IMG/VR virus record: IMGVR_UViG_3300044648_000391
Location: 1-57,355 of that record
DNA: 57,355 nt
Strand: one strand, 5' to 3'
Source: a virus
Lineage: Duplodnaviria; Caudoviricetes
Below the pieces are notes generated by a model. It saw only the letters and a program-made list of their open reading frames with translations. It searched no databases and was not told the DNA's origin. Position 1 is the stretch's first letter, and every line of letters begins with the position of its first letter. Below are positions 8,718 through 44,661 of this stretch, piece by piece. The translations under genes were made by a program, and so were the position numbers.

Positions 8718-9170
8718 ATGAAATTGAAACCTACGTTAACTGGAATATTGTTATTCTCAAACGCTGCTGCATATACGGGTATAAATAAGGATAATTATAA
8801 AGAAAAATTATGCGGACCTGATTTGTTTGTAGTTACAAATCCTGAGCATCCGCCTAGGGGCCGTCATTCTCTTAGCGGGGCTGATGCTGATAACTTTAGA
8901 ACAATTGAGTTTAATTACGCTCAGTATTGTACTAAATTGGCTACTTACAACCGTATGCTTGATAAAAAGGAAAAGTGTGATTCAGAGCCTGAAGATTGCA
9001 CCCAGAAGGCATACATTCAAACACAAGTTGATAATGCTGGGATAGACTTAGCAAATACTTGCTTCCAGCTAGAGTCAAATAAAAAACGTAGCAAGCACAT
9101 GTGGGACGATATCATGATTAAGCGCAAGGAGTGCATTCATGTTACGCCCATAAGCACAGGTCCTAGGTAG
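8718..9170 (+). CDS. Cys-rich exported protein
   Basis: Signal peptide MKLKPTLTGILLFSNAAA, several Cys, AGGAG RBS. Confidence 0.65.
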   Translation: MKLKPTLTGILLFSNAAAYTGINKDNYKEKLCGPDLFVVTNPEHPPRGRHSLSGADADNFRTIEFNYAQYCTKLATYNRMLDKKEKCDSEPEDCTQKAYIQTQVDNAGIDLANTCFQLESNKKRSKHMWDDIMIKRKECIHVTPISTGPR

Positions 9171-9222
9171 TCCGTGAGTGACTTTTGGGCTGGATTTATT
9201 GTCTGCCTAATCTTGTCTCTAT

Positions 9223-9276
9223 CTTGTCTCTGTTAGCTTTTTGCCTTTTCAATCAGGCAAGGTTAGCAGAGACAGG
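9223..9276 (+). promoter_or_regulatory. Long hairpin upstream of RNA ligase 1
   Basis: 9223-9238 pairs with 9261-9276; TTGCCT/AGGCAA inner stem. Confidence 0.5.
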
Positions 9277-9290
9277 CAAACCTCAATGGT

Positions 9291-10379
9291 GTGAGAAGTC
9301 TGGTTATGGCAATTGAATATATTTCATTAATGCATGACAAAATACAAAAGTTTGACATTAGCTATGCTGAAGATTTAATTGCTGATGGATGGATAAGACG
9401 TAGCGCTCATCCTTCGGGTGAACTTTTTATTTATAACTATACCGAAAAGACAGTCTACGAAAAGTTTTGGAATCAATATACTTTACAATGTCGAGGATTA
9501 ATCACTGACATAGAAGGTAATATCATTGCGCGACCATTTCCTAAGATTTTTAATGTAGAAGAGCTAGATAGTTTACCTAATGAGCCTTACGATGTTTACG
9601 AAAAACTAGATGGGTCCCTAGGTATTCTTTATTTTTATAAAGATAAGCCCTATATAGCGACCAGAGGGTCCTTTACAGGCGAGCAAGCGGTTGTTGCTAA
9701 TGAAATGCTTCAGAAATTAGATACTAGTGCATTTAGAAAAGGTCTTACCTATTTGTTTGAAATTATTTACCCAGAAAATAGAATAGTCGTAAATTATGGG
9801 GATGAGCGTTCGTTGCGATTAATTGGTCTTGTGGTTACAGCAACCGGTGAAGATATTTCCGACCTAGATGTTCAAGGATATGGCAGATTTCCTCACATTA
9901 CTGCGCTTAATCCTTCTGTTCCAGCGCTACAAGCTTTAAATATCCAAAACAAAGAAGGCTTTGTCCTTAGATTTAAGAGCGGTATCCGCGTTAAAGTAAA
10001 ATTTAAAGACTATGTTATGTTGCATAGCATTATTACTGAAATGACGGCGCGTAAGGTATGGGAAGCGGTTAAGAGTAATAAGTCATTTGATGAGTTTATT
10101 AAAAACATTCCAGACGAAATATTTGGGTGGATCAAAGCTAAGGAAAATTACTTCAAGGAACAATACGCCTTAATAGAGAGCAAAGCAAAAGCAGACCTTA
10201 ATAAGATAATGGGTGAATACCATGAAAACCGAAAAAGTGTTGCTATGATGATTAAGAATTGTGATAACCCGCATGTACTGTTTAGAATGTTCGATGATAA
10301 AGATTATAGCGAATGTATTTGGAAGACACTTGAACCTGAGCACGAACTACCTATACTTGACACACAAAAAAACACATGA
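9291..10379 (+). CDS. T4 Rnl1-like RNA ligase
   Basis: CRGLI, ARPFPKIFN, motif I EKLDGS, ATRGSF, YLFEIIYPENRIVV, EGFVL, KVK. Confidence 0.92.
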   Translation: MRSLVMAIEYISLMHDKIQKFDISYAEDLIADGWIRRSAHPSGELFIYNYTEKTVYEKFWNQYTLQCRGLITDIEGNIIARPFPKIFNVEELDSLPNEPYDVYEKLDGSLGILYFYKDKPYIATRGSFTGEQAVVANEMLQKLDTSAFRKGLTYLFEIIYPENRIVVNYGDERSLRLIGLVVTATGEDISDLDVQGYGRFPHITALNPSVPALQALNIQNKEGFVLRFKSGIRVKVKFKDYVMLHSIITEMTARKVWEAVKSNKSFDEFIKNIPDEIFGWIKAKENYFKEQYALIESKAKADLNKIMGEYHENRKSVAMMIKNCDNPHVLFRMFDDKDYSECIWKTLEPEHELPILDTQKNT

Positions 10380-10385
10380 TACATT
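10357..10385 (+). promoter_or_regulatory. Near-consensus sigma70 promoter with extended -10
   Basis: TTGACA-17 nt-TACATT with TG at 10377-10378. Confidence 0.75.
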
Positions 10386-10392
10386 ACCCGCC

Positions 10393-10740
10393 AGAATGCA
10401 TAGGAGTTGGGTCGGCTCCTGAGAGCTAGTCGTTAGGTAAATTCTCGAGCATTCTTACTAGTCTCTGTAACCGGTGAGCCGTACATCCGACGGGGTGTAC
10501 TCATTGTTTTGCAGCCAAGGCGAGCCATGTACGGTGAACCGTGCTTTAACCTTCTGGTAGGGAGGGTGGTTCACAAAACCTTGGAAGTCGCAAGCCGTAA
10601 GGGTGAGGGGGATAGCGGGTGGGTTTAAAGCGTATACGCTGTCCGTAAGCTCTAGGCAACTAGGCACTAGCTACGCTAAAAATAGTTTTACCACGGTACA
10701 TACTAGTCGGCATAAACGTCATCTCGAATTCCGGCCCGTC
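10393..10740 (+). ncRNA. Candidate large structured RNA (~350 nt)
   Basis: GC-rich gap without a sense ORF; many G-U-containing stems and GNRA loops; starts at the predicted +1. Confidence 0.7.
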
Positions 10741-10758
10741 TATTCTTTACGGTGAGCT

Positions 10759-11550
10759 ATGTTTTCAAAAATTAAAAGATATCTGCAAGATAAATTCTTC
10801 GATAAATACATTCCGTTGAACAAAGCAATTAAAGAGCTGTACAAGCTTGAAAAAAGCCTGATGCCTGGTAATGTGCCTGTAGGGGGGTTATGGGCGTGGA
10901 ATGCTTCAGAGGAATACAAGATTGTCCGAGAGTACTACCTTTTTAATCGGGGGTTGCAGCACCGCCTTTATGGTAAATTGAATCCTGACATATCGATAAA
11001 AAATAATTTCTTTCATATTGGTTGTGGCAGCCTACCTGCCTGGTCAGTAACCAATGAAACGGGTAAAAGAAATAGTACTAATATCCATATAAGCCATGTT
11101 TGGCGTGGTAATAATATTGTTGTTTACAAATATCAGAAACACGATCCATCTTTTTTTATCCCAAGCTCAATGTATATGACTGACATTACTGAATCTAAAA
11201 GAACATATATAGTTGCAATACATGACGTATCCGTAAAGCGTTCTCATCTTAGACATCTAGTGGATATCATTAAACAAGAGGCAGCAGAGTCACCAAGCAC
11301 TACCGAACACAAAGAGGATTTAAAACAAATCAGAAAAAGACGTAAGCGTGAGAAGCGACGATATAAAAACTCTGCAAAGTATAAAAAACGTAGGTTAGAA
11401 CTCATAGTTGATAAGAGAATACAGAAGACGGAGGCAGGTTTCCGAAAGCAGTGCTGGTTGTTTAAAGATATGTTTAATATACTCAAAGGGCACAACGATG
11501 AGTCGCATAAACCTATGTCGTATTCGCCTTCATGGGGTCCTGGTAAGTGA
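10759..11550 (+). CDS. Hypothetical protein with Arg/Lys-rich tract
   Basis: 263 aa; RKRRKREKRRYKNSAKYKKRR. Confidence 0.6.
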   Translation: MFSKIKRYLQDKFFDKYIPLNKAIKELYKLEKSLMPGNVPVGGLWAWNASEEYKIVREYYLFNRGLQHRLYGKLNPDISIKNNFFHIGCGSLPAWSVTNETGKRNSTNIHISHVWRGNNIVVYKYQKHDPSFFIPSSMYMTDITESKRTYIVAIHDVSVKRSHLRHLVDIIKQEAAESPSTTEHKEDLKQIRKRRKREKRRYKNSAKYKKRRLELIVDKRIQKTEAGFRKQCWLFKDMFNILKGHNDESHKPMSYSPSWGPGK

Positions 11551-11984
11551 AATGGGCATGGGCAGAAGACTACATTGCAAAGCCAAACGGCTGGGTAATT
11601 CTTGATTATAGTAGGAGTAAGAAACAAGTGTGGAAAGGGCCTGTTAAAATTAAATTGATTGCTGATTATGTGTTTCCGTTTAAACCCTCAATATTTACTA
11701 CTGAAGCCCCAAAAGTTGACAGCAAGGGGTATTTTACTTTTCGCAGGGATATAGAGGATGATAATTACGAAATGACTTACCATTTTTTTAAGATTTTAAA
11801 TTTAAAAGAAGAAATGCCCTTTAGCGATATTGAAAAATTTTTACATATGAAAAAGTTCGGAATATTAGCAGACATTAAGGTACGCCCAGAATACACTTAC
11901 GAACTTTCGAAAGCTCTAAAGGAATATGGCATTGAAACTAACTTAGTTCACCCTGAACAATACTGCAAGATTGAAATAGAATGA
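11547..11984 (+). CDS. Hypothetical protein
   Basis: 145 aa, 4-nt overlaps with both neighbours. Confidence 0.65.
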   Translation: MKWAWAEDYIAKPNGWVILDYSRSKKQVWKGPVKIKLIADYVFPFKPSIFTTEAPKVDSKGYFTFRRDIEDDNYEMTYHFFKILNLKEEMPFSDIEKFLHMKKFGILADIKVRPEYTYELSKALKEYGIETNLVHPEQYCKIEIE

Positions 11985-12259
11985 CAACTTTTGCATTACA
12001 AATAGACCCACGCGACCTGCGCATTGATATTTTTAGCGATTCTGGCGCGATGGTTAAAAACAAGTTAGGTATAAAAACTATTCGTATAACGCATTTACCA
12101 TCTGGCGAAGTCACAGAATGTGGTGACACATGCTCTAGGCATCCTAATATCTCCGCATGGAATATAGACCGAAAAAAATGTGCTATATCTCAGTTAAAGC
12201 AGAAGTTAAACGACAGTATCAAAGCTAAGCAATCAGGGGCAGGAAATGGAAGAAGTTAA
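11981..12259 (+). CDS. Class I release-factor domain-3-like protein lacking GGQ
   Basis: IDPRDLRIDIF..SGA..IRITHLPSGEVTEC..SRHPN..AISQLKQKL. Confidence 0.75.
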   Translation: MTTFALQIDPRDLRIDIFSDSGAMVKNKLGIKTIRITHLPSGEVTECGDTCSRHPNISAWNIDRKKCAISQLKQKLNDSIKAKQSGAGNGRS

Positions 12260-13394
12260 AAGAAAGCTAGCATCAATTCGGGTTATATCTGAAATCAAGC
12301 CGATAGAAGGTGCGGATAACATAGAGCTTGCTATTGTTGATGGCTGGCAGTGCGTGGTTAAGAAAGGTGATTTTGAGGCTGGCAATTTATGTGTTTATTT
12401 TGAAATAGATTCATTCTTGCCTATACGCCCAGAGTTTGAATTCCTCCGCAAGTCTTCGTATAAGAAGATGGGTAATAAAGAGGGATTTAGGCTTAAAACG
12501 ATTAGGCTTAGAGGTCAGATATCGCAGGGATTGGTGTTAAGGATAGGATTCTTAACATATAATGCGAAAAGGAGTACCTTATATTTCTCGTTAGAAGGAG
12601 ACATTTTGCGTACTATACCGGCATATCCAAATTTATGCTCACAAGCCATTACTCTGAGCGACAAGGAGTATGAAGAATTTAAGCGTAATAGTCTCGGGGG
12701 AACCGACCTTACAGAAGTTTTAGGTATCGAAAAATACGAACCACCCATCCCCGCATGTTTAGCCGGAAAGGTTAAGGGCAACTTTCCGTCATTTATCCGT
12801 AAAACAGACTTAGAGCGTGTACAGAATATCTGGGGTGACATAAAAGACCGTATGGAATCATTTGAGGTGACGGTTAAGCTAGATGGTACAAGCTGTACGT
12901 TTTATTTGAAAGATGGGGTATTCGGTGTCTGTTCACGTAACCTAGAGCTAAAGGAAGAAGAGAACAACACTTACTGGAAGATGGCCAGAAAATACAATAT
13001 TGAGCAGCTGCTTAGAGATTGTGGCCAAAACCTAGCACTACAGGGCGAAATCATTGGGGAAGGTATACAAGGCAATCCTGAGGGTATTCAGGGGCAAGAA
13101 TTCTACTTGTTTGATATTTGGGATATTGATAACCATCGATATTTAATGCCGCTTGAAAGGGTTTTGTTATGGACTGATAAGTTTAACTCGATACCCTGGT
13201 GTCCGTATACAGAAGAGCGTGGACTTAGCTTCGACAAGGATTTATCACACCTAGATTTAAACGAATTCCTAGGATATGCAAATGGCAAGTCATTACATGC
13301 TGATATGCGGGAAGGGATTGTATTTAAGTCAAACGATTCCGACCTAAGATTTAAGGTTATATCAAATGAATATTTATTAAAGAAGGGTGATTAA
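12246..13394 (+). CDS. RNA ligase, DRB0094/Rnl5 family
   Basis: N-terminal RKLASIRVI..IEGADNIE..GWQCVVKKG..YFEIDS OB module; KLDGTS, VCSRN, LQGE, FDI, REGIVFK, FKVIS. Confidence 0.93.
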   Translation: MEEVKRKLASIRVISEIKPIEGADNIELAIVDGWQCVVKKGDFEAGNLCVYFEIDSFLPIRPEFEFLRKSSYKKMGNKEGFRLKTIRLRGQISQGLVLRIGFLTYNAKRSTLYFSLEGDILRTIPAYPNLCSQAITLSDKEYEEFKRNSLGGTDLTEVLGIEKYEPPIPACLAGKVKGNFPSFIRKTDLERVQNIWGDIKDRMESFEVTVKLDGTSCTFYLKDGVFGVCSRNLELKEEENNTYWKMARKYNIEQLLRDCGQNLALQGEIIGEGIQGNPEGIQGQEFYLFDIWDIDNHRYLMPLERVLLWTDKFNSIPWCPYTEERGLSFDKDLSHLDLNEFLGYANGKSLHADMREGIVFKSNDSDLRFKVISNEYLLKKGD

Positions 13395-13663
13395 TGGAAT
13401 CCATACTTAACGATGTGTTTGATATAAAGATAACAGCCCATGCACCCTATAAGGACACTAACATTACGCTCTATCGGATAAGTTTTAAGGCGGGGAGATT
13501 GTATAGTTATGAATTCTCTATCTGTAAGAAATACAATCGTATGGAGTGTGACTTATTTTGCAAGGGTCTAGAAGAATCAATCCGAACGCTTATAAGATGC
13601 ATGTTAGAAGATATGGCCAGGGCTATTGGCGGAACGCCTTTATCCAAGCTTGATAAATCGTGA
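13394..13663 (+). CDS. Hypothetical protein
   Basis: Translationally coupled to the ligase. Confidence 0.55.
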   Translation: MESILNDVFDIKITAHAPYKDTNITLYRISFKAGRLYSYEFSICKKYNRMECDLFCKGLEESIRTLIRCMLEDMARAIGGTPLSKLDKS

Positions 13664-13678
13664 TATAATACACATAAT

Positions 13679-13755
13679 AGCGGGGTGGAGCAGTCTGGCA
13701 GCTCGCCTGCCTCATAAGCAGGAGGTCGCAGGTTCAAATCCTGCCTCCGCTACCA
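13679..13755 (+). tRNA. tRNA(CAT) with initiator-like body
   Basis: AGCGGGGTGGAGCAGTCTGGCAGCTCG, loop CTCATAA, CCA; TATAAT at 13664. Confidence 0.92.
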
Positions 13756-13889
13756 AATATAATTGGAGGGTTAAAAATGAATCAAGATGACGTTAAACAA
13801 GTAGAGCAGGATTCTTTCAATATGGATATTTTATCTGAGAAAGAGTCAGATATTGCACAAGAAAAGTATTTTGGGTAAGGGGATAAGTT

Positions 13890-14285
13890 ATGATACGTTT
13901 TACAGCAATTGACACGATTAATTTTGAAAATGATTTAGAAAAGGATAAGTTCTTTCAGGCTCTCGTTGGTAAGTATCTTATCTTTCGAGACCAGTGCTGC
14001 GACTTTGTCGGTAAGTTAATAGAGCAAGATGTTAACAGAAGATGGCGAGATAATTTTTATTTACTTGGAGATGTAATCTATGTTCCAAATTTGTTTAATG
14101 AATACGTAAATTATTTTTGGCTGTGTGACACCGAAAGGAAAGCGGGAAATGGCATTCTACTATTTAACACAAAAGAGCCGATTTATTTTGAACGTTTAGA
14201 TATAGATATTTTACCGATTAAGCAACCTTATGGTATTTTGGATGACAACGAAGCGTTAGCTAAAAAGCTTTTGGGTAACGTTTAG
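13890..14285 (+). CDS. Hypothetical protein
   Basis: 131 aa ORF. Confidence 0.6.
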   Translation: MIRFTAIDTINFENDLEKDKFFQALVGKYLIFRDQCCDFVGKLIEQDVNRRWRDNFYLLGDVIYVPNLFNEYVNYFWLCDTERKAGNGILLFNTKEPIYFERLDIDILPIKQPYGILDDNEALAKKLLGNV

Positions 14286-14298
14286 CATCAACAATATA

Positions 14299-14376
14299 CT
14301 GAGAGTAGCGCAGCTTGGGTAGCGTACCTCCCTTGGAAGGAGGTGGTCGTTGGTTCAAATCCAACCTCTCAGACCA
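14299..14376 (+). tRNA. tRNA-Pro(TGG)
   Basis: CTGAGAG/CTCTCAG, loop CTTGGAA, CCA. Confidence 0.93.
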
Positions 14377-14377
14377 A

Positions 14378-14462
14378 GCCCTGTTGGTGGAATTGGCAGA
14401 CACAGCGGGCTTAGAACCCGCCGTAGCAATACATCTCGGTTCAAGTCCGAGGCAGGGTACCA
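14378..14462 (+). tRNA. tRNA-Leu(TAG)
   Basis: Long variable arm, loop CTTAGAA, CCA. Confidence 0.93.
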
Positions 14463-14719
14463 GGTTTCTTAAGCCCATAGTAATAATTGGCATAAGTATT
14501 TAACACGCTCTTTCCAAAGATAAGGCCCGCGTCAAAACTTTCCCTCGGAAAATTAGTCACAATAATACTCGCCATTACATTACCCAGCAGGTTAATAGCC
14601 GTACCAACTGACTCCTTCTTTACGATTTCATGCAAAGACTTGCAAAGCACATCTCTGCGCTTTGCTTCTTCTGGTGTAACCTCAACCTCTTGGATATCGG
14701 ATTGAGACTTGTCAGTCAT
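14441..14719 (-). CDS. Hypothetical protein
   Basis: Coupled to the HigA-like gene; 3' end overlaps tRNA-Leu on the opposite strand. Confidence 0.55.
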   Translation of the reverse strand: MTDKSQSDIQEVEVTPEEAKRRDVLCKSLHEIVKKESVGTAINLLGNVMASIIVTNFPRESFDAGLIFGKSVLNTYANYYYGLKKPGTLPRT

Positions 14720-15008
14720 CCTCCGATGGTTCACTTACTTCATTCTCAGATTCAGAGCTGCTATTACTCGATGCGTAATCCTTCCTTACGCTAGTCCAGT
14801 AGTTGTAGTCTTTACCTTCAACATTCAGGCTAGCAAGCTTCTTTGCCATTTTATCAGTCAAAGTAGTCCTGCCTTTTATGGCGGACCTAATGGTGCTTTC
14901 ATTAACGCCTAACTTCTCGGCTAATTGGTAATTTGTTAGCTTAAGCTCTTCTTTAAAGCTTCTAAGCGCATCACCTGGTGATATTGGTTTAATGTTATCG
15001 TTTGACAT
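14712..15008 (-). CDS. HigA-like HTH antitoxin/regulator
   Basis: PISPGDAL...LTNYQLAEKLGV...IKGRTTLTDKMAKKLA...YW. Confidence 0.7.
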   Translation of the reverse strand: MSNDNIKPISPGDALRSFKEELKLTNYQLAEKLGVNESTIRSAIKGRTTLTDKMAKKLASLNVEGKDYNYWTSVRKDYASSNSSSESENEVSEPSEDD

Positions 15009-15026
15009 ATTGCCCCCTATTGTTAA

Positions 15027-16187
15027 TTAATACCCTTTCCAATTAATAATTGGTTTTAAATGCCTTAAAACCTTAACACTTGCCTGCTGAAGCTCCATAA
15101 CCTCAAAGATATTCTTGTAAGCCATTGGGCTTTCATCTATCGTCTCTTGGTTAACGGGTGCTACAATTCCGCGCATCTTATCACGAAACTCATCCATACT
15201 TATAATCTTTCTAGCCTGCCCTCGGCTTAATGCTCTGCCAGCCCCATGCGAAGAGCTATTGAGAAAATCTGCATTCCCCAAACCTTCTACTAAAAAGCAG
15301 CCATCTTTCATGTTGGCGGGTATAACACCCCGCTCACCCTTTTCTGAAGAAGTAGCGCCCTTTCGATGCAGATAAACATTAGGTTGAACCTCAATGCAGT
15401 GATTATGATTCTTGTTAGTCCAGAGATTCTTTGTAGTATCGTATTCAACCCCACAAATAATAAAAATGGCAGCCTCTACCTTCTTCGCCATCGACAATCT
15501 ATTGAGCAATGCAAACTTTAAGCAATAATCTTGATAAATCATGTACTCTTTCTTAATCTCTTCATTCTGGATAGCATACGTTGCCTCAAATCCCTTATCG
15601 AGACCCGATACAAGCTTCATAAAGCATGTACCTATGGTGTGACCAACCCCTCGTGAACCGCTGTGTATTACGAGCCAGGTTTCGTTCTTGTATTCAAGTA
15701 TTTCAATAAAATGGTTGCCAGAACCAAGAGTGCCCAGGTTTTTAAGAGACCTATCGTTCACTTGGCGTAAAAGCCCAGATAATAAATTGCAGGAAGACAA
15801 CTTATTAAGTTTATCTAAATCGTTTTGCATACCTGCTTTGAAGTAAATATTGTCTCCTGCCTTATTAAAACCACCCATACCCATTGGAATTGAGCGGTTA
15901 ACTTCTTTAAATAACGCCACCGCATTACGCTTAATGCTTTCTTGGGCTTTCTTGTCTTCCGATATCTTAACTGCAATCATGCCGCAACCAATGTCATAAC
16001 CAACCCAGGCAGGCACAATCGCACCCGTGGTTTTAATAACACTACCAATGGGTGCTACATACCCGCTATGCGCATCTGGCATTAGGGCTGCTTCTGTTAC
16101 AAAATCATGCGCGCAGCATTCGTCAAACTGCTTCTTGGCGCTTTCTTCGAGTGACGCTATGTTTGCGTGTATGCTTATTTTTTTCAT
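15027..16187 (-). CDS. rtcB: RtcB RNA ligase
   Basis: MPDAHSGY, GYDIGCGM, LGTLGSGNHFIE, HSGSRG, HNH, HRKGA, SHGAGR, DESPMAYK. Confidence 0.96.
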   Translation of the reverse strand: MKKISIHANIASLEESAKKQFDECCAHDFVTEAALMPDAHSGYVAPIGSVIKTTGAIVPAWVGYDIGCGMIAVKISEDKKAQESIKRNAVALFKEVNRSIPMGMGGFNKAGDNIYFKAGMQNDLDKLNKLSSCNLLSGLLRQVNDRSLKNLGTLGSGNHFIEILEYKNETWLVIHSGSRGVGHTIGTCFMKLVSGLDKGFEATYAIQNEEIKKEYMIYQDYCLKFALLNRLSMAKKVEAAIFIICGVEYDTTKNLWTNKNHNHCIEVQPNVYLHRKGATSSEKGERGVIPANMKDGCFLVEGLGNADFLNSSSHGAGRALSRGQARKIISMDEFRDKMRGIVAPVNQETIDESPMAYKNIFEVMELQQASVKVLRHLKPIINWKGY

Positions 16188-41277: not shown

Positions 41278-42447
41278 ATGAGCGTTGAACAAGATATGCA
41301 AATGTTGCAATTATTACAACAAGCACAGGCAAATCAAGGTCAAATGCAGCCTAATATGCAACAAATGCCGCCGCAAATGATGCAAGAAGCGCAAATGCCT
41401 ATGATCCAACAACGTCCCAATCCATTAGAGGCTGGCTCTCGGGCTGCGGTTGAGGCGGCTAAACGTTCTTTGGAGATGAGTGACAATGAAAATAGACGCG
41501 CACTGGGTAAATCCATTATTTCAATGCTGGGCAATATGTATAATCACCCGGCTTATGGTAAAGGGTTAGCAGGCGCTTTTACAGCGATGGGCAGTAATAT
41601 ACCGGGTGCCATAGAAATGTATGATACTGAACGCGACAGAATTCGTAATTTGAATTACATGCTCAGTAAACAGCAAAAAGAAGAAGTGGCCGCTGCCAGA
41701 AAAGAAGAGCGCGAAATGAAAAAAATGGCGCATGAAATGGAGATGCAAAAGCGTCACCTGAACGTGTCGGAAGGATACTATAATCTTGAAAAAATGAAGC
41801 GAGAGGATGAAAAGCTAGCTCACGCAGAAATGGCGCAACATGGCGCACATATTCCATTATCAACATTACCGACCTCTGCTTACAATCGAGCAATGGCTCA
41901 AATTAATACGCATATTAATGAAGGGGAATCTGTGCTACCGGGGCTTGATGCAGTTGACAATATTGAAAGAATTTTAACGGACACGCCAGAAGTGACTAAG
42001 CATTGGGGGACTATTTTAACTGCTTCACAAATGCAAAACCCGGGATATGTTAACCAACAGCTTGGAAGGCTTGTTCCAGATAAAATTAAGAATAATGCCG
42101 CATTGTTATCTAAAAACTTGGTAACACTTTATGCTTCTAAGCTGAAAGGTTTCCCGGGCAGAAGTTTGACGGCCTATCTTGAAAACCAGTTAAAACAAGG
42201 TATGCCAAATATTACACTGGATGCTTCTGCCACCAAAGAGCTTATCAAGGGTGATAAAAAATTCATGAAGCATAAGCATGAAAATGGTCAGGAGGTATAT
42301 CGGAACCTGCAAAAAGGTATTTATTATGTACCAAAACCCATGGAATATGAAGAGCCATCAGAATCTACAAAAAACACTAAAACGATGACACCTGAAGAGG
42401 CAGAAGCCCGTAAAGCGCAATTAAGGCAAATGTTGGGGCAGGGGTAA
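41278..42447 (+). CDS. Putative ejection protein
   Basis: Helical and Q/M-rich, in operon. Confidence 0.6.
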   Translation: MSVEQDMQMLQLLQQAQANQGQMQPNMQQMPPQMMQEAQMPMIQQRPNPLEAGSRAAVEAAKRSLEMSDNENRRALGKSIISMLGNMYNHPAYGKGLAGAFTAMGSNIPGAIEMYDTERDRIRNLNYMLSKQQKEEVAAARKEEREMKKMAHEMEMQKRHLNVSEGYYNLEKMKREDEKLAHAEMAQHGAHIPLSTLPTSAYNRAMAQINTHINEGESVLPGLDAVDNIERILTDTPEVTKHWGTILTASQMQNPGYVNQQLGRLVPDKIKNNAALLSKNLVTLYASKLKGFPGRSLTAYLENQLKQGMPNITLDASATKELIKGDKKFMKHKHENGQEVYRNLQKGIYYVPKPMEYEEPSESTKNTKTMTPEEAEARKAQLRQMLGQG

Positions 42448-42450
42448 AGA

Positions 42451-44661
42451 ATGGGCATGACACGCGAAGAGATGGAACGAGAGCTGGCTGAGCTTGAGGC
42501 AGCGTTTCCAAGCCAAAATCCAAACCCAGCGATGGGTCAAAATGCTGCGCCTAATAGAGCTGCTTTAGAGGCAGAATTAGCCGAGCTTGAAAAAGCCTAT
42601 CCAACACCGGCGGGCGGGTTTTTGCATCGTGCAGGGCAATTAGCAAGAGGTATAATGCAGGGTACGGGGGGTGGTGCTGACCTAATCCAGCCTAGAAACC
42701 CAGCGTTACGACCTCATGCCGCTGACCCCGAACAAATAGGCGGTATTGAATACTTTTTCCCTGAAGAAGCGGGTCAAATGGCCAATGAAGCACCTCATAA
42801 ACCCTTATATGAAGAGCTGCCGCGCTTAACTGGCTTAGATGAAAGATTTGAACCCGAAAAAGGGGACACATTCGGCAAAGGCTTAAATGTGACAGGCAAT
42901 CTCTTAGCATTTTCCCCGATTCCAGGGGGCGGATACGCTAACGCTGGCAAAAAATTGCTAGACGAAGGCGCTAAGAGTGCATTAAAAGCCCTTGGAAAAG
43001 AAGCAGCGCTATCAACCGGGGCAGCAGCGGCCATCACTGCAACCCCAAGGTTTACAGAAGAAGGTACACCTAAAGGCGCTTTAGAGGATTTTGCGAAAGG
43101 TCTATTTGGTATGAGAGCGGCTGACACGATAGTGAGCAAAAATCTCACAAAAGTATTAGGCAGAATCCCAAAAAGAATAGGACTATCTGCTACAACCATG
43201 GGCGCAAAACCGAACGAAAGGGCTTTTGGTTTAGCAGAAAAACATGGCATTGATCTACCATTTAATGTTGGGCTGCGCAGTAAACCTGCAAACTGGATGG
43301 CTAATAACTATCTGAAATCTATTTTTACATCAGGGGTTTATGAGGATGCCTTAAAGAATTCTAACGAGTCGATGATAGCGGCTGTTAAGCGCAATATTGA
43401 TTCTCTGGGTGACTCTAACCTGATGCCGCATGAAGCCTCCGGTGAATACAGAAGGTTTATACAAGCAGAAGAAAAAGCCGCAGAAAAGGCAGCCTCAAAG
43501 CTTTATAACGAGGCAGCAGAAATTCTTAAAAAAACAGATACTGTCAAACCTACGCATACCGCTAAATTCATAGAAGGCATGGAAGAATTATTACAGCGTG
43601 ATGTGCAATCACCTTCCACCAAGAAAGTTGCCAATGTTGTCGGTAATTTAGCTGAAAGCTGGGGAATAGCACCCTCAGGTAAGACGCTAGAAGAATTAGA
43701 AAAGAATCCAAAGCTAATACAGGCTTATTTAGAGGCTTTTAAAAAACATACGCCTAATATTCCGATTAAAAAGCTGATAGGTGTTAGAAAAGAGCTGGGT
43801 ACTATTACAAATTTCGACCCAACGATTAAGGGTTCAGAATCTTATTTAAATGGGCTTAAGGGGGCGATTGATTCTGATATTCAGCTTACCAAGAATAAGG
43901 CATTCCTTGAAAAATGGCGATATGCGAATACTGAGTTTAAAAAAAATGTGGCTGACAGGTTTCGGGGAGATATTGCGAGAAGCCTATTGGCAAATGAGAT
44001 GCCAACGGAGGCTTTTAGTTTATTAAATACGCCAGCGAATATAAAAGAGCTTCAGAAGATTGTGGGTAACAACCCTAAGGCAGTTGAGGTCTTTAATGCA
44101 CTTAAAAAGGCCAAGGTGAGGGAAATATTTTCAAATGCGTTACAGGATGAATCCTTAAGGGTAACGCCTTTTGTGAATGTTTTTAATAAAAAAGAAAAGA
44201 CGGCTGAGCATTTAGCAGCGCTTCTACCGGATAAGAAAACGTTTAACAATTTATCTGAGATAGCAGAGATTGCAAACGAGTTTAAAGCAGCAAATCTGGA
44301 GTTCTTAAACACGTCTCGCACTGCTTTAACTGCTTCAGAAATTGCCAAGGCTGAGAAGCTGACAAAAGGGGTTCTATCGGCCTTCTTTAATGGCGCGGTT
44401 GGTTCTGGTGTAGGTGCAATGGCGGGTATTGGAAGTGCGGGGGGTGCTGCTATTGGTATTGCAATGCCTAATCTTTTATCACGCCTTGTTGCGAACCCTC
44501 AGTTTGTAAGAGAAGCAAGAGCGTATGCGATTGCGCGTAAAAATGGGCGGCAATTATATGCGGATACACTTTTAAAAAGACTTATTAAATTAACGGATGC
44601 GGAATCTCGGCTAGTCATGCATGAGATACGGGAAAATCAGGAGAAGTTCAAAAATGAGTAG
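42451..44661 (+). CDS. Large putative ejection/DNA-transfer protein
   Basis: 736 aa helical protein with Gly/Ala hydrophobic segments. Confidence 0.65.
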   Translation: MGMTREEMERELAELEAAFPSQNPNPAMGQNAAPNRAALEAELAELEKAYPTPAGGFLHRAGQLARGIMQGTGGGADLIQPRNPALRPHAADPEQIGGIEYFFPEEAGQMANEAPHKPLYEELPRLTGLDERFEPEKGDTFGKGLNVTGNLLAFSPIPGGGYANAGKKLLDEGAKSALKALGKEAALSTGAAAAITATPRFTEEGTPKGALEDFAKGLFGMRAADTIVSKNLTKVLGRIPKRIGLSATTMGAKPNERAFGLAEKHGIDLPFNVGLRSKPANWMANNYLKSIFTSGVYEDALKNSNESMIAAVKRNIDSLGDSNLMPHEASGEYRRFIQAEEKAAEKAASKLYNEAAEILKKTDTVKPTHTAKFIEGMEELLQRDVQSPSTKKVANVVGNLAESWGIAPSGKTLEELEKNPKLIQAYLEAFKKHTPNIPIKKLIGVRKELGTITNFDPTIKGSESYLNGLKGAIDSDIQLTKNKAFLEKWRYANTEFKKNVADRFRGDIARSLLANEMPTEAFSLLNTPANIKELQKIVGNNPKAVEVFNALKKAKVREIFSNALQDESLRVTPFVNVFNKKEKTAEHLAALLPDKKTFNNLSEIAEIANEFKAANLEFLNTSRTALTASEIAKAEKLTKGVLSAFFNGAVGSGVGAMAGIGSAGGAAIGIAMPNLLSRLVANPQFVREARAYAIARKNGRQLYADTLLKRLIKLTDAESRLVMHEIRENQEKFKNE

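Follow-up and report, generated by a model that had tools for sequence, protein, structure and literature searches.

A GGQ-less homologue of release factor domain 3 encoded beside an Rnl5-type RNA ligase in a small group of phages

Analysis of a complete Caudoviricetes genome (IMG/VR record IMGVR_UViG_3300044648_000391; 57,355 bp, carrying direct terminal repeats and rated 100% complete by CheckV), the whole of which is referred to here as the window, uncovered an open reading frame (ORF) for a 92-residue protein, P0001, that is a true homologue of domain 3 of the class I release factors (RFs) RF1 and RF2. P0001 has MVK where RFs carry the catalytic GGQ motif, and its gene runs into that of an Rnl5-type RNA ligase. 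The protein belongs to a family that is very rare, is confined to phages and metagenomes, and shares an invariant Cys-Cys-His-Cys (CCHC) set. The GGQ domain of RFs is among the most conserved catalytic modules of translation, and its known stand-alone derivatives (ArfB, ICT1 and PrfH) all, to our knowledge, keep GGQ and hydrolyse peptidyl-tRNA. P0001 is not a release or rescue factor. We tentatively propose, at a probability of roughly 0.4, that it is a non-catalytic, zinc-stabilised accessory of a phage RNA (probably tRNA) nick-repair cassette.

Homology to release factor domain 3 and loss of GGQ

A phmmer search of P0001 against the PDB returned 41 distinct sequences at E ≤ 1, all of them RFs. 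In the best match, to E. coli RF2 (E = 3.3e-8), residues 6–73 of P0001 face RF2 residues 227–294. The HMMER alignment sets SGA-MVK-NK against SGA-GGQ-HVN, with a one-residue deletion directly after, and so bears out an earlier note, made by eye from the letters, that had read an RF1/RF2-like catalytic domain with MVK in place of GGQ. The Pfam RF-1 model proposed there as a check does find the protein (PF00472, residues 6–79, E = 9.6e-5), at a score of 22.7 bits that lies below the gathering score of 35. Despite this sub-gathering score, the homology is clear from the PDB matches and from the structural comparison below. The PHROG family phrog_20323 ('RF-1 domain') also matches P0001 (E = 7.7e-8), at 33.1 bits vs 64.9 for a Pseudomonas phage member, PHROGs having no curated cut-off. 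Across the family the phrog_20323 match is weak (25–33 bits), and two of six other members tested have none. Among NCBIfam models, prfA (33 bits, E = 3e-8; cut-off 423) and prfB (25.7 bits; cut-off 370) match, and no further model does at E ≤ 0.01, that of ArfB included. A full-length class I RF has about 360 residues; in the much shorter P0001, PF00472 is the sole Pfam match, and the PCRF/decoding domain (PF03462; domains 2/4) is absent.

An AlphaFold2 model of P0001, built from an eight-row family alignment (predicted local distance difference test score, pLDDT, 71.4), contains strands at residues 13–19, 31–38 and 43–47 and a helix at 64–88. The RF domain-3 fold, a three-stranded sheet on a long helix, is therefore present in the model; the earlier note would have abandoned its reading had the fold been missing. 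Foldseek returned 15 matches at E ≤ 0.001, and those at the top are domain 3 of RF1, RF2 and mtRF1, with template modelling (TM) scores by query of 0.5–0.67. The best match is RF2 in 8p16 (E = 1.2e-4, TM 0.60); the PrfH structure 9mor_A comes only at rank 45. Read from its sequence, P0001 cannot be a hydrolase of the RF type, as the earlier note had held in calling it non-catalytic, and GGQ is likewise missing from all 16 domain copies of the family described next.

A rare family with an invariant Cys/His set

We define the CCHC mini-RF family as proteins with an RF domain-3 core, no GGQ, and the pattern C-x3-C-x2-H-x(9-13)-C. It comprises 15 proteins with 16 domain copies, a count that includes a 242-residue protein from a relative of the window phage (locus L005) and the tandem protein P0005. 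When 1.84 billion representatives were searched exhaustively with phmmer, 122 sequences reached E ≤ 1e-3, 113 with GGQ and nine without. Eight of these nine are short relatives (P0002, P0004, P0005, P0007, P0009, P0017, P0035 and P0047); the ninth, P0117 (355 residues), is a false positive, an unrelated Cys-rich repeat protein. Faecal records labelled 'Bacteriophage sp.' proved to be ordinary bacterial RF1 genes that keep GGQ. A profile search of 5.8 billion clusters recovered 13 family proteins at 64–134 bits, with true RFs next at ≤59 bits. All 13 are metagenome-sourced, with one or two member sequences per cluster, and none of the 13 carries a precomputed Pfam domain, PF00472 included. Identity to P0001 ranges from 24% to 64% across the family and is at most 48% for those relatives whose DNA was available.

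In a hidden Markov model alignment of 238 RF-type domains (the 16 family copies, 220 GGQ-bearing domains and two other GGQ-less ones), Cys, Cys, His and Cys stand together at positions 47, 51, 54 and 67 in 16 domains, none with GGQ, and the full set occurs in 0 of the 220 GGQ-bearing domains. The two further GGQ-less phage proteins, one from Pseudomonas Septimatrevirus and one a 69-residue ORF of a high-GC viral contig, also have no CCHC set. All 13 aligned family proteins, and all 16 domains, have C47, C51, H54 and C67. C47 and H54 are inherited from RFs, C51 replaces an Arg conserved in RFs, and C67, at the beginning of the helix, follows an insertion of 8–9 residues relative to RFs. The invariance and spacing of the four residues suggest that they are probably a structural zinc site stabilising what is now a stand-alone domain.

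Conservation in the family is lowest in the former GGQ loop, where half of the domain copies have a gap at four columns. The RF-conserved residues R19, N28, K29, T30, S32, A33, Q48, R51, S52, Q53 and N56 have been lost, among them residues that RFs conserve around helix alpha7. Those kept lie in the core strands (L13, D16, R35, I36, H38, P40 and G42), and the RF strand motifs DLRID and RITHxPTG are retained. Residues 82–92 of P0001 are not conserved, and this tail is absent from the closest relative. Calculated isoelectric points span 5.5–10 in the family, the window's own subgroup being basic (9.6–10). Because GGQ-less relatives down to 24% identity share the same new set of four invariant residues, the RF-like ORF is a real, selected phage gene and not a decayed fragment.

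The domain also occurs in combination. P0005 is a tandem of two CCHC mini-RF domains, and P0128 carries an N-terminal piece homologous to a 55-residue ORF (L036:1351-1518) that lies between a NADAR gene and the ligase in another relative. The tandem and the fusion suggest that the CCHC domain has been shuffled with its neighbours.

Several wider searches for related loci returned little. Initial scans with a single protein or a two-row alignment gave nothing, and a scan of viral contigs with the family alignment (A3) gave only locus L004, an unrelated high-GC phage mini-RF. A family-specific DNA pattern that covers 9 of the 16 known domains picked out, among viral contigs, the L005 contig alone and, among genome contigs, one chance match in an unrelated ORF. 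A search for longer fused forms yielded 4154 hits from 8000 scored candidates, with true RFs swamping the result; even the known 242-residue fusion was missed, and the search is uninformative about fused forms.

Ligase linkage and genomic setting

The ligase encoded with P0001 is assigned by its OB domain (PF21189, E = 6e-40), by PF09414 (E = 9e-27) and by TIGR02306 (208.9 bits; cut-off 151.15), and consists of an N-terminal OB domain and a nucleotidyltransferase domain. K211 (the lysine of KLDG), E268 and K370 are invariant in an alignment of 22 sequences, and the start at 12246 is supported because relatives begin M-x-E-x-x-RKLASIR. Compared by tblastn with the ligase of a related record (locus L006), the window ligase carries about 36 additional residues between the two domains, at residues ~96–150 (12530-12700).

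DNA contexts were obtained for four members or pairs of members of the family, and in all four the RF-like gene lies within 2 kb of an Rnl5-type ligase gene on the same strand; the linkage of homologues to an RNA-repair gene on which the earlier note had staked its case is thus found in every context. In the window, the RF-like gene stands directly upstream of the ligase and, as that note had seen, its stop overlaps the ligase start, here by 14 nt. On a 5.9-kb metagenome contig (L035), the ligase stop overlaps the start of the RF-like gene P0035, and a second copy, P0007, follows 0.9 kb further on. On a 4.0-kb contig (L036), the RF-like gene P0047 lies 0.5 kb downstream of the ligase with one 172-residue ORF between. 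In the complete 50.9-kb relative (L005), whose ligase and large terminase (TerL) are 58% and 67% identical to those of the window, it lies 1.9 kb downstream. It was the RF-like motif, not the ligase, that led to L035 and L036. The linkage is suggestive, yet the four contexts are not independent.

The L005 relative of P0001 is a fusion. Its CCHC domain occupies residues 1–70, and residues 117–234 match the C-terminal tRNA-binding region of tyrosyl-tRNA synthetase (TyrRS): positions 292–404 of 406 in TIGR00234 (E = 1.7e-13), residues 294–408 of 410 in the TyrRS structure 6byq (E = 4.9e-7), and phrog_9270 (E = 3.8e-7). The S4 Pfam model gives E = 6e-4, below its cut-off. The fusion connects the family with tRNA and not with the decoding centre.

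The window phage has no close relative among GenBank phages, its TerL being at most 36% identical to that of any of them, with the nearest in Roseobacter phages. One DNA sequencing run, of a soil metagenome, is possibly where the window comes from, and no RNA run is listed. The RF-like gene is the third of five plus-strand genes in a tight run (Table 1), ORF263, ORF145, the RF-like ORF, the ligase and ORF89, whose successive overlaps are 4, 4, 14 and 1 nt. From this packing we infer that P0001 and the ligase are co-translated. A promoter and terminator scan of 9000-14500 gave the same counts as shuffled sequence, with no terminator-like site inside the run. ORF145 and ORF263 have no Pfam, PHROG, NCBIfam or PADLOC family and, in the Atlas, no usable match or scores of ≤0.80; a single-sequence AlphaFold2 model of ORF145 (pLDDT 33.4) was unusable.

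Table 1. Genes and sites of the window around the RF-like ORF, and NADAR genes at related loci
Feature	Position	Strand	Basis or remark
T4 Rnl1-like RNA ligase	9291..10379	+	PF09511 E 1.8e-16; phrog_562 E 1e-66
ORF263, 263 aa, function unknown; first gene of the run	10759..11550	+	No family match
ORF145, 145 aa, function unknown	11547..11984	+	4-nt overlap at either end; no family match
RF-like ORF (P0001), 92 aa; GGQ-less, CCHC-bearing RF domain-3 homologue	11981..12259	+	Pfam, PHROG, phmmer, AlphaFold2/Foldseek, NCBIfam
Codons M24-V25-K26 at the RF GGQ position	12050..12058	+	HMMER alignment to RF2/RF1
C47-x3-C51-x2-H54 ... C67 set, probable zinc site	12119..12181	+	Invariant and family-specific
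Rnl5/DRB0094-type ATP-dependent RNA ligase	12246..13394	+	PF21189, PF09414, TIGR02306
ORF89, 89 aa	13394..13663	+	1-nt overlap with ligase stop; no family match
tRNA-Met, tRNA-Pro and tRNA-Leu genes	13679..14462	+	131-aa ORF between tRNA-Met and tRNA-Pro
RtcB RNA ligase, not the PrfH-linked type by NCBIfam cut-offs	15027..16187	-	PF01139 E 6.7e-74
NADAR genes of relatives	L005:9643-10092; L006:5365-5850; L035:2532-3410; L036:881-1351		

Three RNA ligases of different classes, Rnl1-like, Rnl5-type and RtcB, lie within 7 kb (9291-16187), interleaved with the genes for tRNA-Met, -Pro and -Leu and with two helix-turn-helix (HTH) genes; no polynucleotide kinase/phosphatase was recognised among the scanned ORFs. 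Between the Rnl1-like gene and ORF263, 379 nt (10380-10758) hold no ORF of ≥80 residues, with short frames only on both strands. This segment has no Rfam match even at E ≤ 1, a fold z-score of -1.38 and no match in three related records. The nine tRNA genes of the window, within 1679-55214, include His(GTG), Asp(GTC) and Asn(GTT), Tyr being missing. Colicin E5-type anticodon nucleases target four tRNAs with GUN anticodons, and His, Asp and Asn are three of those four.

Four relatives have a NADAR gene (PF08719, E = 2.8e-32 in L005) near the ligase; the window has none, and the L035 copy carries a fused C-terminal extension of 150 residues. The L006 ligase (L006:6001-6909, from a 95%-complete record, G002) loses similarity after about residue 290 of 382, has no region bearing the invariant F369-K370 and is followed by an HTH gene, so that it is probably a truncated gene. 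The same record has no RF-like gene.

Competing explanations and comparison with known systems

In the explanation we favour, P0001 derives from domain 3 of a class I RF (RF1 or RF2) and now stands alone. The hydrolysis loop and several RF-conserved residues have been lost and a Cys3-His set gained, which most likely binds zinc and so stabilises the isolated domain. The protein would serve as a substrate-recognition or adaptor subunit of a cassette built round the adjacent Rnl5-type nick-sealing ligase, the most probable substrate being tRNA nicked by host defence nucleases. The accessory reading is supported by its setting, with three RNA ligases and three tRNA genes at 9.3–16.2 kb. Zinc binding, contact with ligase or RNA, and the substrate are all things we infer here, and P0001 may recruit the ligase. 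A complex prediction with the ligase (22 alignment rows), the RF-like protein (13 rows) and a zinc ion scored 0.00 in both runs, which speaks neither for nor against binding.

A more specific version, which we consider speculative and rather improbable, would make the CCHC mini-RF the substrate-recognition subunit of an undescribed phage counter-defence, in which this domain, zinc-bound and catalytically dead, would hold nicked tRNA for the Rnl5-type ligase. In the L005 relative the fused TyrRS domain would help, with tRNA-Tyr cut in the variable-arm stem as the target; the ligase would reseal the 3'-OH/5'-PO4 cuts left by metal-dependent nucleases of the Septu, retron-Eco7 and OLD kind. In support of the broader accessory reading too, published work describes Rnl5 ligases as sealing 3'-OH/5'-PO4 nicks in duplex RNA, with a physiological role that is uncharted. 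Septu and retron-Eco7 are described as cutting the stem of the tRNA-Tyr variable loop (excerpt of PMC13096335), and P2-OLD as cutting anticodon stems to leave 5'-P/3'-OH ends, a single nick of this type being resealed by T4 RNA ligases (excerpt of PMC12445682). A family domain joined to the TyrRS C-terminal domain, with such a ligase nearby, is in keeping with repair or shielding of tRNA-Tyr in the L005 relative. Were the counter-defence version true, Rnl5 ligases would for the first time have a physiological role, and an RF domain would be seen to have been recruited to recognise tRNA away from the ribosome.

Several observations weigh against a role in such a cassette, in either form. The L005 context was found through its ligase, and the four contexts come from one related phage group that shares other genes (TerL 56–67% identical). 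With n = 4, the linkage may be inherited synteny in a hypervariable accessory region and not functional coupling. An RF-like ORF lies within 6 kb in only one (L005) of the 29 ligase loci fetched from viral contigs, and therefore this ligase type normally works without an RF-like gene; of five related records searched whole, only that of L005 has one. The TyrRS domain is found in 1 of the 15 family proteins, and P0001 is without it, just as the window is without a tRNA-Tyr gene. The spread of isoelectric points in the family misfits a uniformly RNA-binding domain.

Part of this evidence would be accommodated if P0001 were a small zinc domain repurposed for something other than RNA repair, for example an anti-defence or regulatory role, and lay near the ligase only because both occupy the same hypervariable region, between a DUF5681-like gene and the large terminase gene. 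We regard this as doubtful but deserving of serious weight. The region is a mosaic of HTH proteins, NADAR, tRNAs and orphan ORFs that differs among relatives; the family is joined to other partners in P0005 and P0128; and 28 of the 29 ligase loci have no RF-like partner. What this explanation leaves unaccounted for is that proximity and strand stay constant while gene order varies (upstream, directly downstream, or one to three genes off), that two of the four junctions between RF-like gene and ligase overlap, and that the fusion to a TyrRS tRNA-binding region points to RNA. A different role again would have P0001 mimic an RF in the 50S A site, either blocking host release and rescue factors or marking damaged or stalled ribosomes for the ligases, much as the earlier note had pictured in bringing the ligase to damaged ribosomes. 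The retained fold, the DLRID and RITHxPTG motifs and the presence of three RNA ligases, RtcB among them, are compatible with this, as is the S4-like end of the L005 TyrRS domain, a class that in Hsp15 binds 50S-peptidyl-tRNA complexes (excerpt of PMC9757039). The fusion partner matches TyrRS and not Hsp15, however, and the kept motifs are core strands that may be conserved for folding alone. P0001 has no decoding domain and no basic tail, loop length varies in the family, RF-conserved residues beyond GGQ are gone, the complete relative has no RtcB, and the loss of Q48, R51, S52, Q53 and N56 lowers the likelihood of ribosome binding. We consider such a mimic unlikely.

A decoy for a host protein that recognises RF domain 3, whether PrmC, the RF-binding factor to which the earlier note's decoy idea extended, or an RF-targeting defence or toxin protein, would be favoured by the partly kept domain-3 surface and by the RF1-PrmC complex 2b3t at Foldseek rank 43. 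The substrate of PrmC is reportedly the Gln of GGQ, and the loop it modifies is the least conserved part of this family and is shortened in half of the domain copies. We know of no defence system aimed at RFs, PADLOC gave no match, and a decoy would explain neither the ligase linkage nor the TyrRS fusion; we judge it very improbable. Slimmer still is the chance that the ORF is a non-functional remnant of a captured prfA or prfB fragment. Its shortness, missing catalytic motif and sub-gathering Pfam score would suit decay, but 15 proteins with intact frames and four invariant new residues, down to 24% identity, together with tandem and fused forms and operon-like packing, bring the remnant reading close to refuted by the conservation pattern.

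The fold and the superfamily are known. As far as our searches reach, no description exists of the GGQ-less CCHC subfamily, of its confinement to a small phage group, of its Rnl5 linkage or of the TyrRS fusion. No paper describing a phage GGQ-less RF domain was found in the open-access literature, the one related mention being of RF-1-domain genes in mycobacterial tRNA arrays (excerpt of PMC5966550), and the family has no PHROG of its own. The family offers a clean case of a domain that has lost its catalytic function, acquired a probable metal site and been maintained by selection in phages beside an Rnl5 ligase. It also opens a testable route to the in vivo substrates of Rnl5 ligases and to phage answers to tRNA-cutting defences other than spare tRNAs. 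A database label such as 'peptide chain release factor' can mislead as to what a phage protein does.

Compared with its closest known counterpart, domain 3 of RF1 and RF2, P0001 is homologous in sequence and fold and shares the strand motifs, C47 and H54; it differs in consisting of domain 3 alone and in its lost GGQ loop, its insertion and its CCHC set. The earlier note had taken PrfH-RtcB2 as the model for this locus. PrfH recognises the decoding centre after its cleavage by colicin E3 and releases the peptide by hydrolysing peptidyl-tRNA, which gives RtcB2 access to the break (excerpts of PMC9304027 and PMC13166195). There too an RF-family protein is encoded near an RNA ligase, and the theme is the reversal of nuclease damage to the translation apparatus; but PrfH is catalytic, and here GGQ is missing and the ligase is of the ATP-dependent Rnl5 type, not RtcB2. 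The PrfH analogy fails because P0001 has neither a decoding-centre domain nor a hydrolysis motif, and NCBIfam links it to prfA and prfB only. The RtcB of the window lies 2.8 kb off on the opposite strand; its score with the PrfH-linked RtcB model TIGR03073 is 110 bits, where the cut-off is 271.8. RtcB is found in none of five related records, the complete one with an RF-like gene (L005) included.

ArfB and ICT1 are stand-alone GGQ-domain rescue factors that hydrolyse peptidyl-tRNA and have a basic C-terminal tail. They resemble the CCHC family in small size, RF domain-3 fold and freedom from codon-recognition domains, but they keep GGQ and the basic tail, of which the CCHC family has neither. 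In T4 we know of no RF-derived component. T4 tRNA repair by Rnl1 and Pnkp against anticodon nucleases (described in part in an excerpt of PMC12445682) is likewise a phage RNA ligase cassette near tRNA genes and presumed to be anti-defence. The window ligase is instead a duplex-nick sealer of uncharted physiological role.

The Pseudomonas Septimatrevirus proteins annotated 'peptide chain release factor' (phage 73 ORF037, TehO, P8749) have an RF-1-like N-terminal domain that is also GGQ-less, so that the annotation is misleading. They have only the first Cys and the His of the CCHC set, are 164 residues long, and adjoin replication genes and not a ligase. In these phages (P8749, at positions 42178-42672 of its record; 73, TehO and PSV3) a FRKPGASAWV stretch is present without GGQ, and an unrelated C-terminal part of about 95 residues (phrog_31936) follows. 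The 69-residue ORF of the high-GC IMG/VR viral contig (L004:2120-2329), without CCHC, is a third kind of GGQ-less mini RF-like ORF. GGQ loss in phage RF-domain proteins, to judge by these alignments, appears to have happened more than once. Plant plastid PrfB3 is RF2-derived, GGQ-less and an RNA-stability factor. As a full-length RF2 derivative of a eukaryotic organelle it differs from a single domain of 70–90 residues and has no CCHC set, and it provides a precedent for a catalysis-free protein of the RF family with an RNA-related role other than termination.

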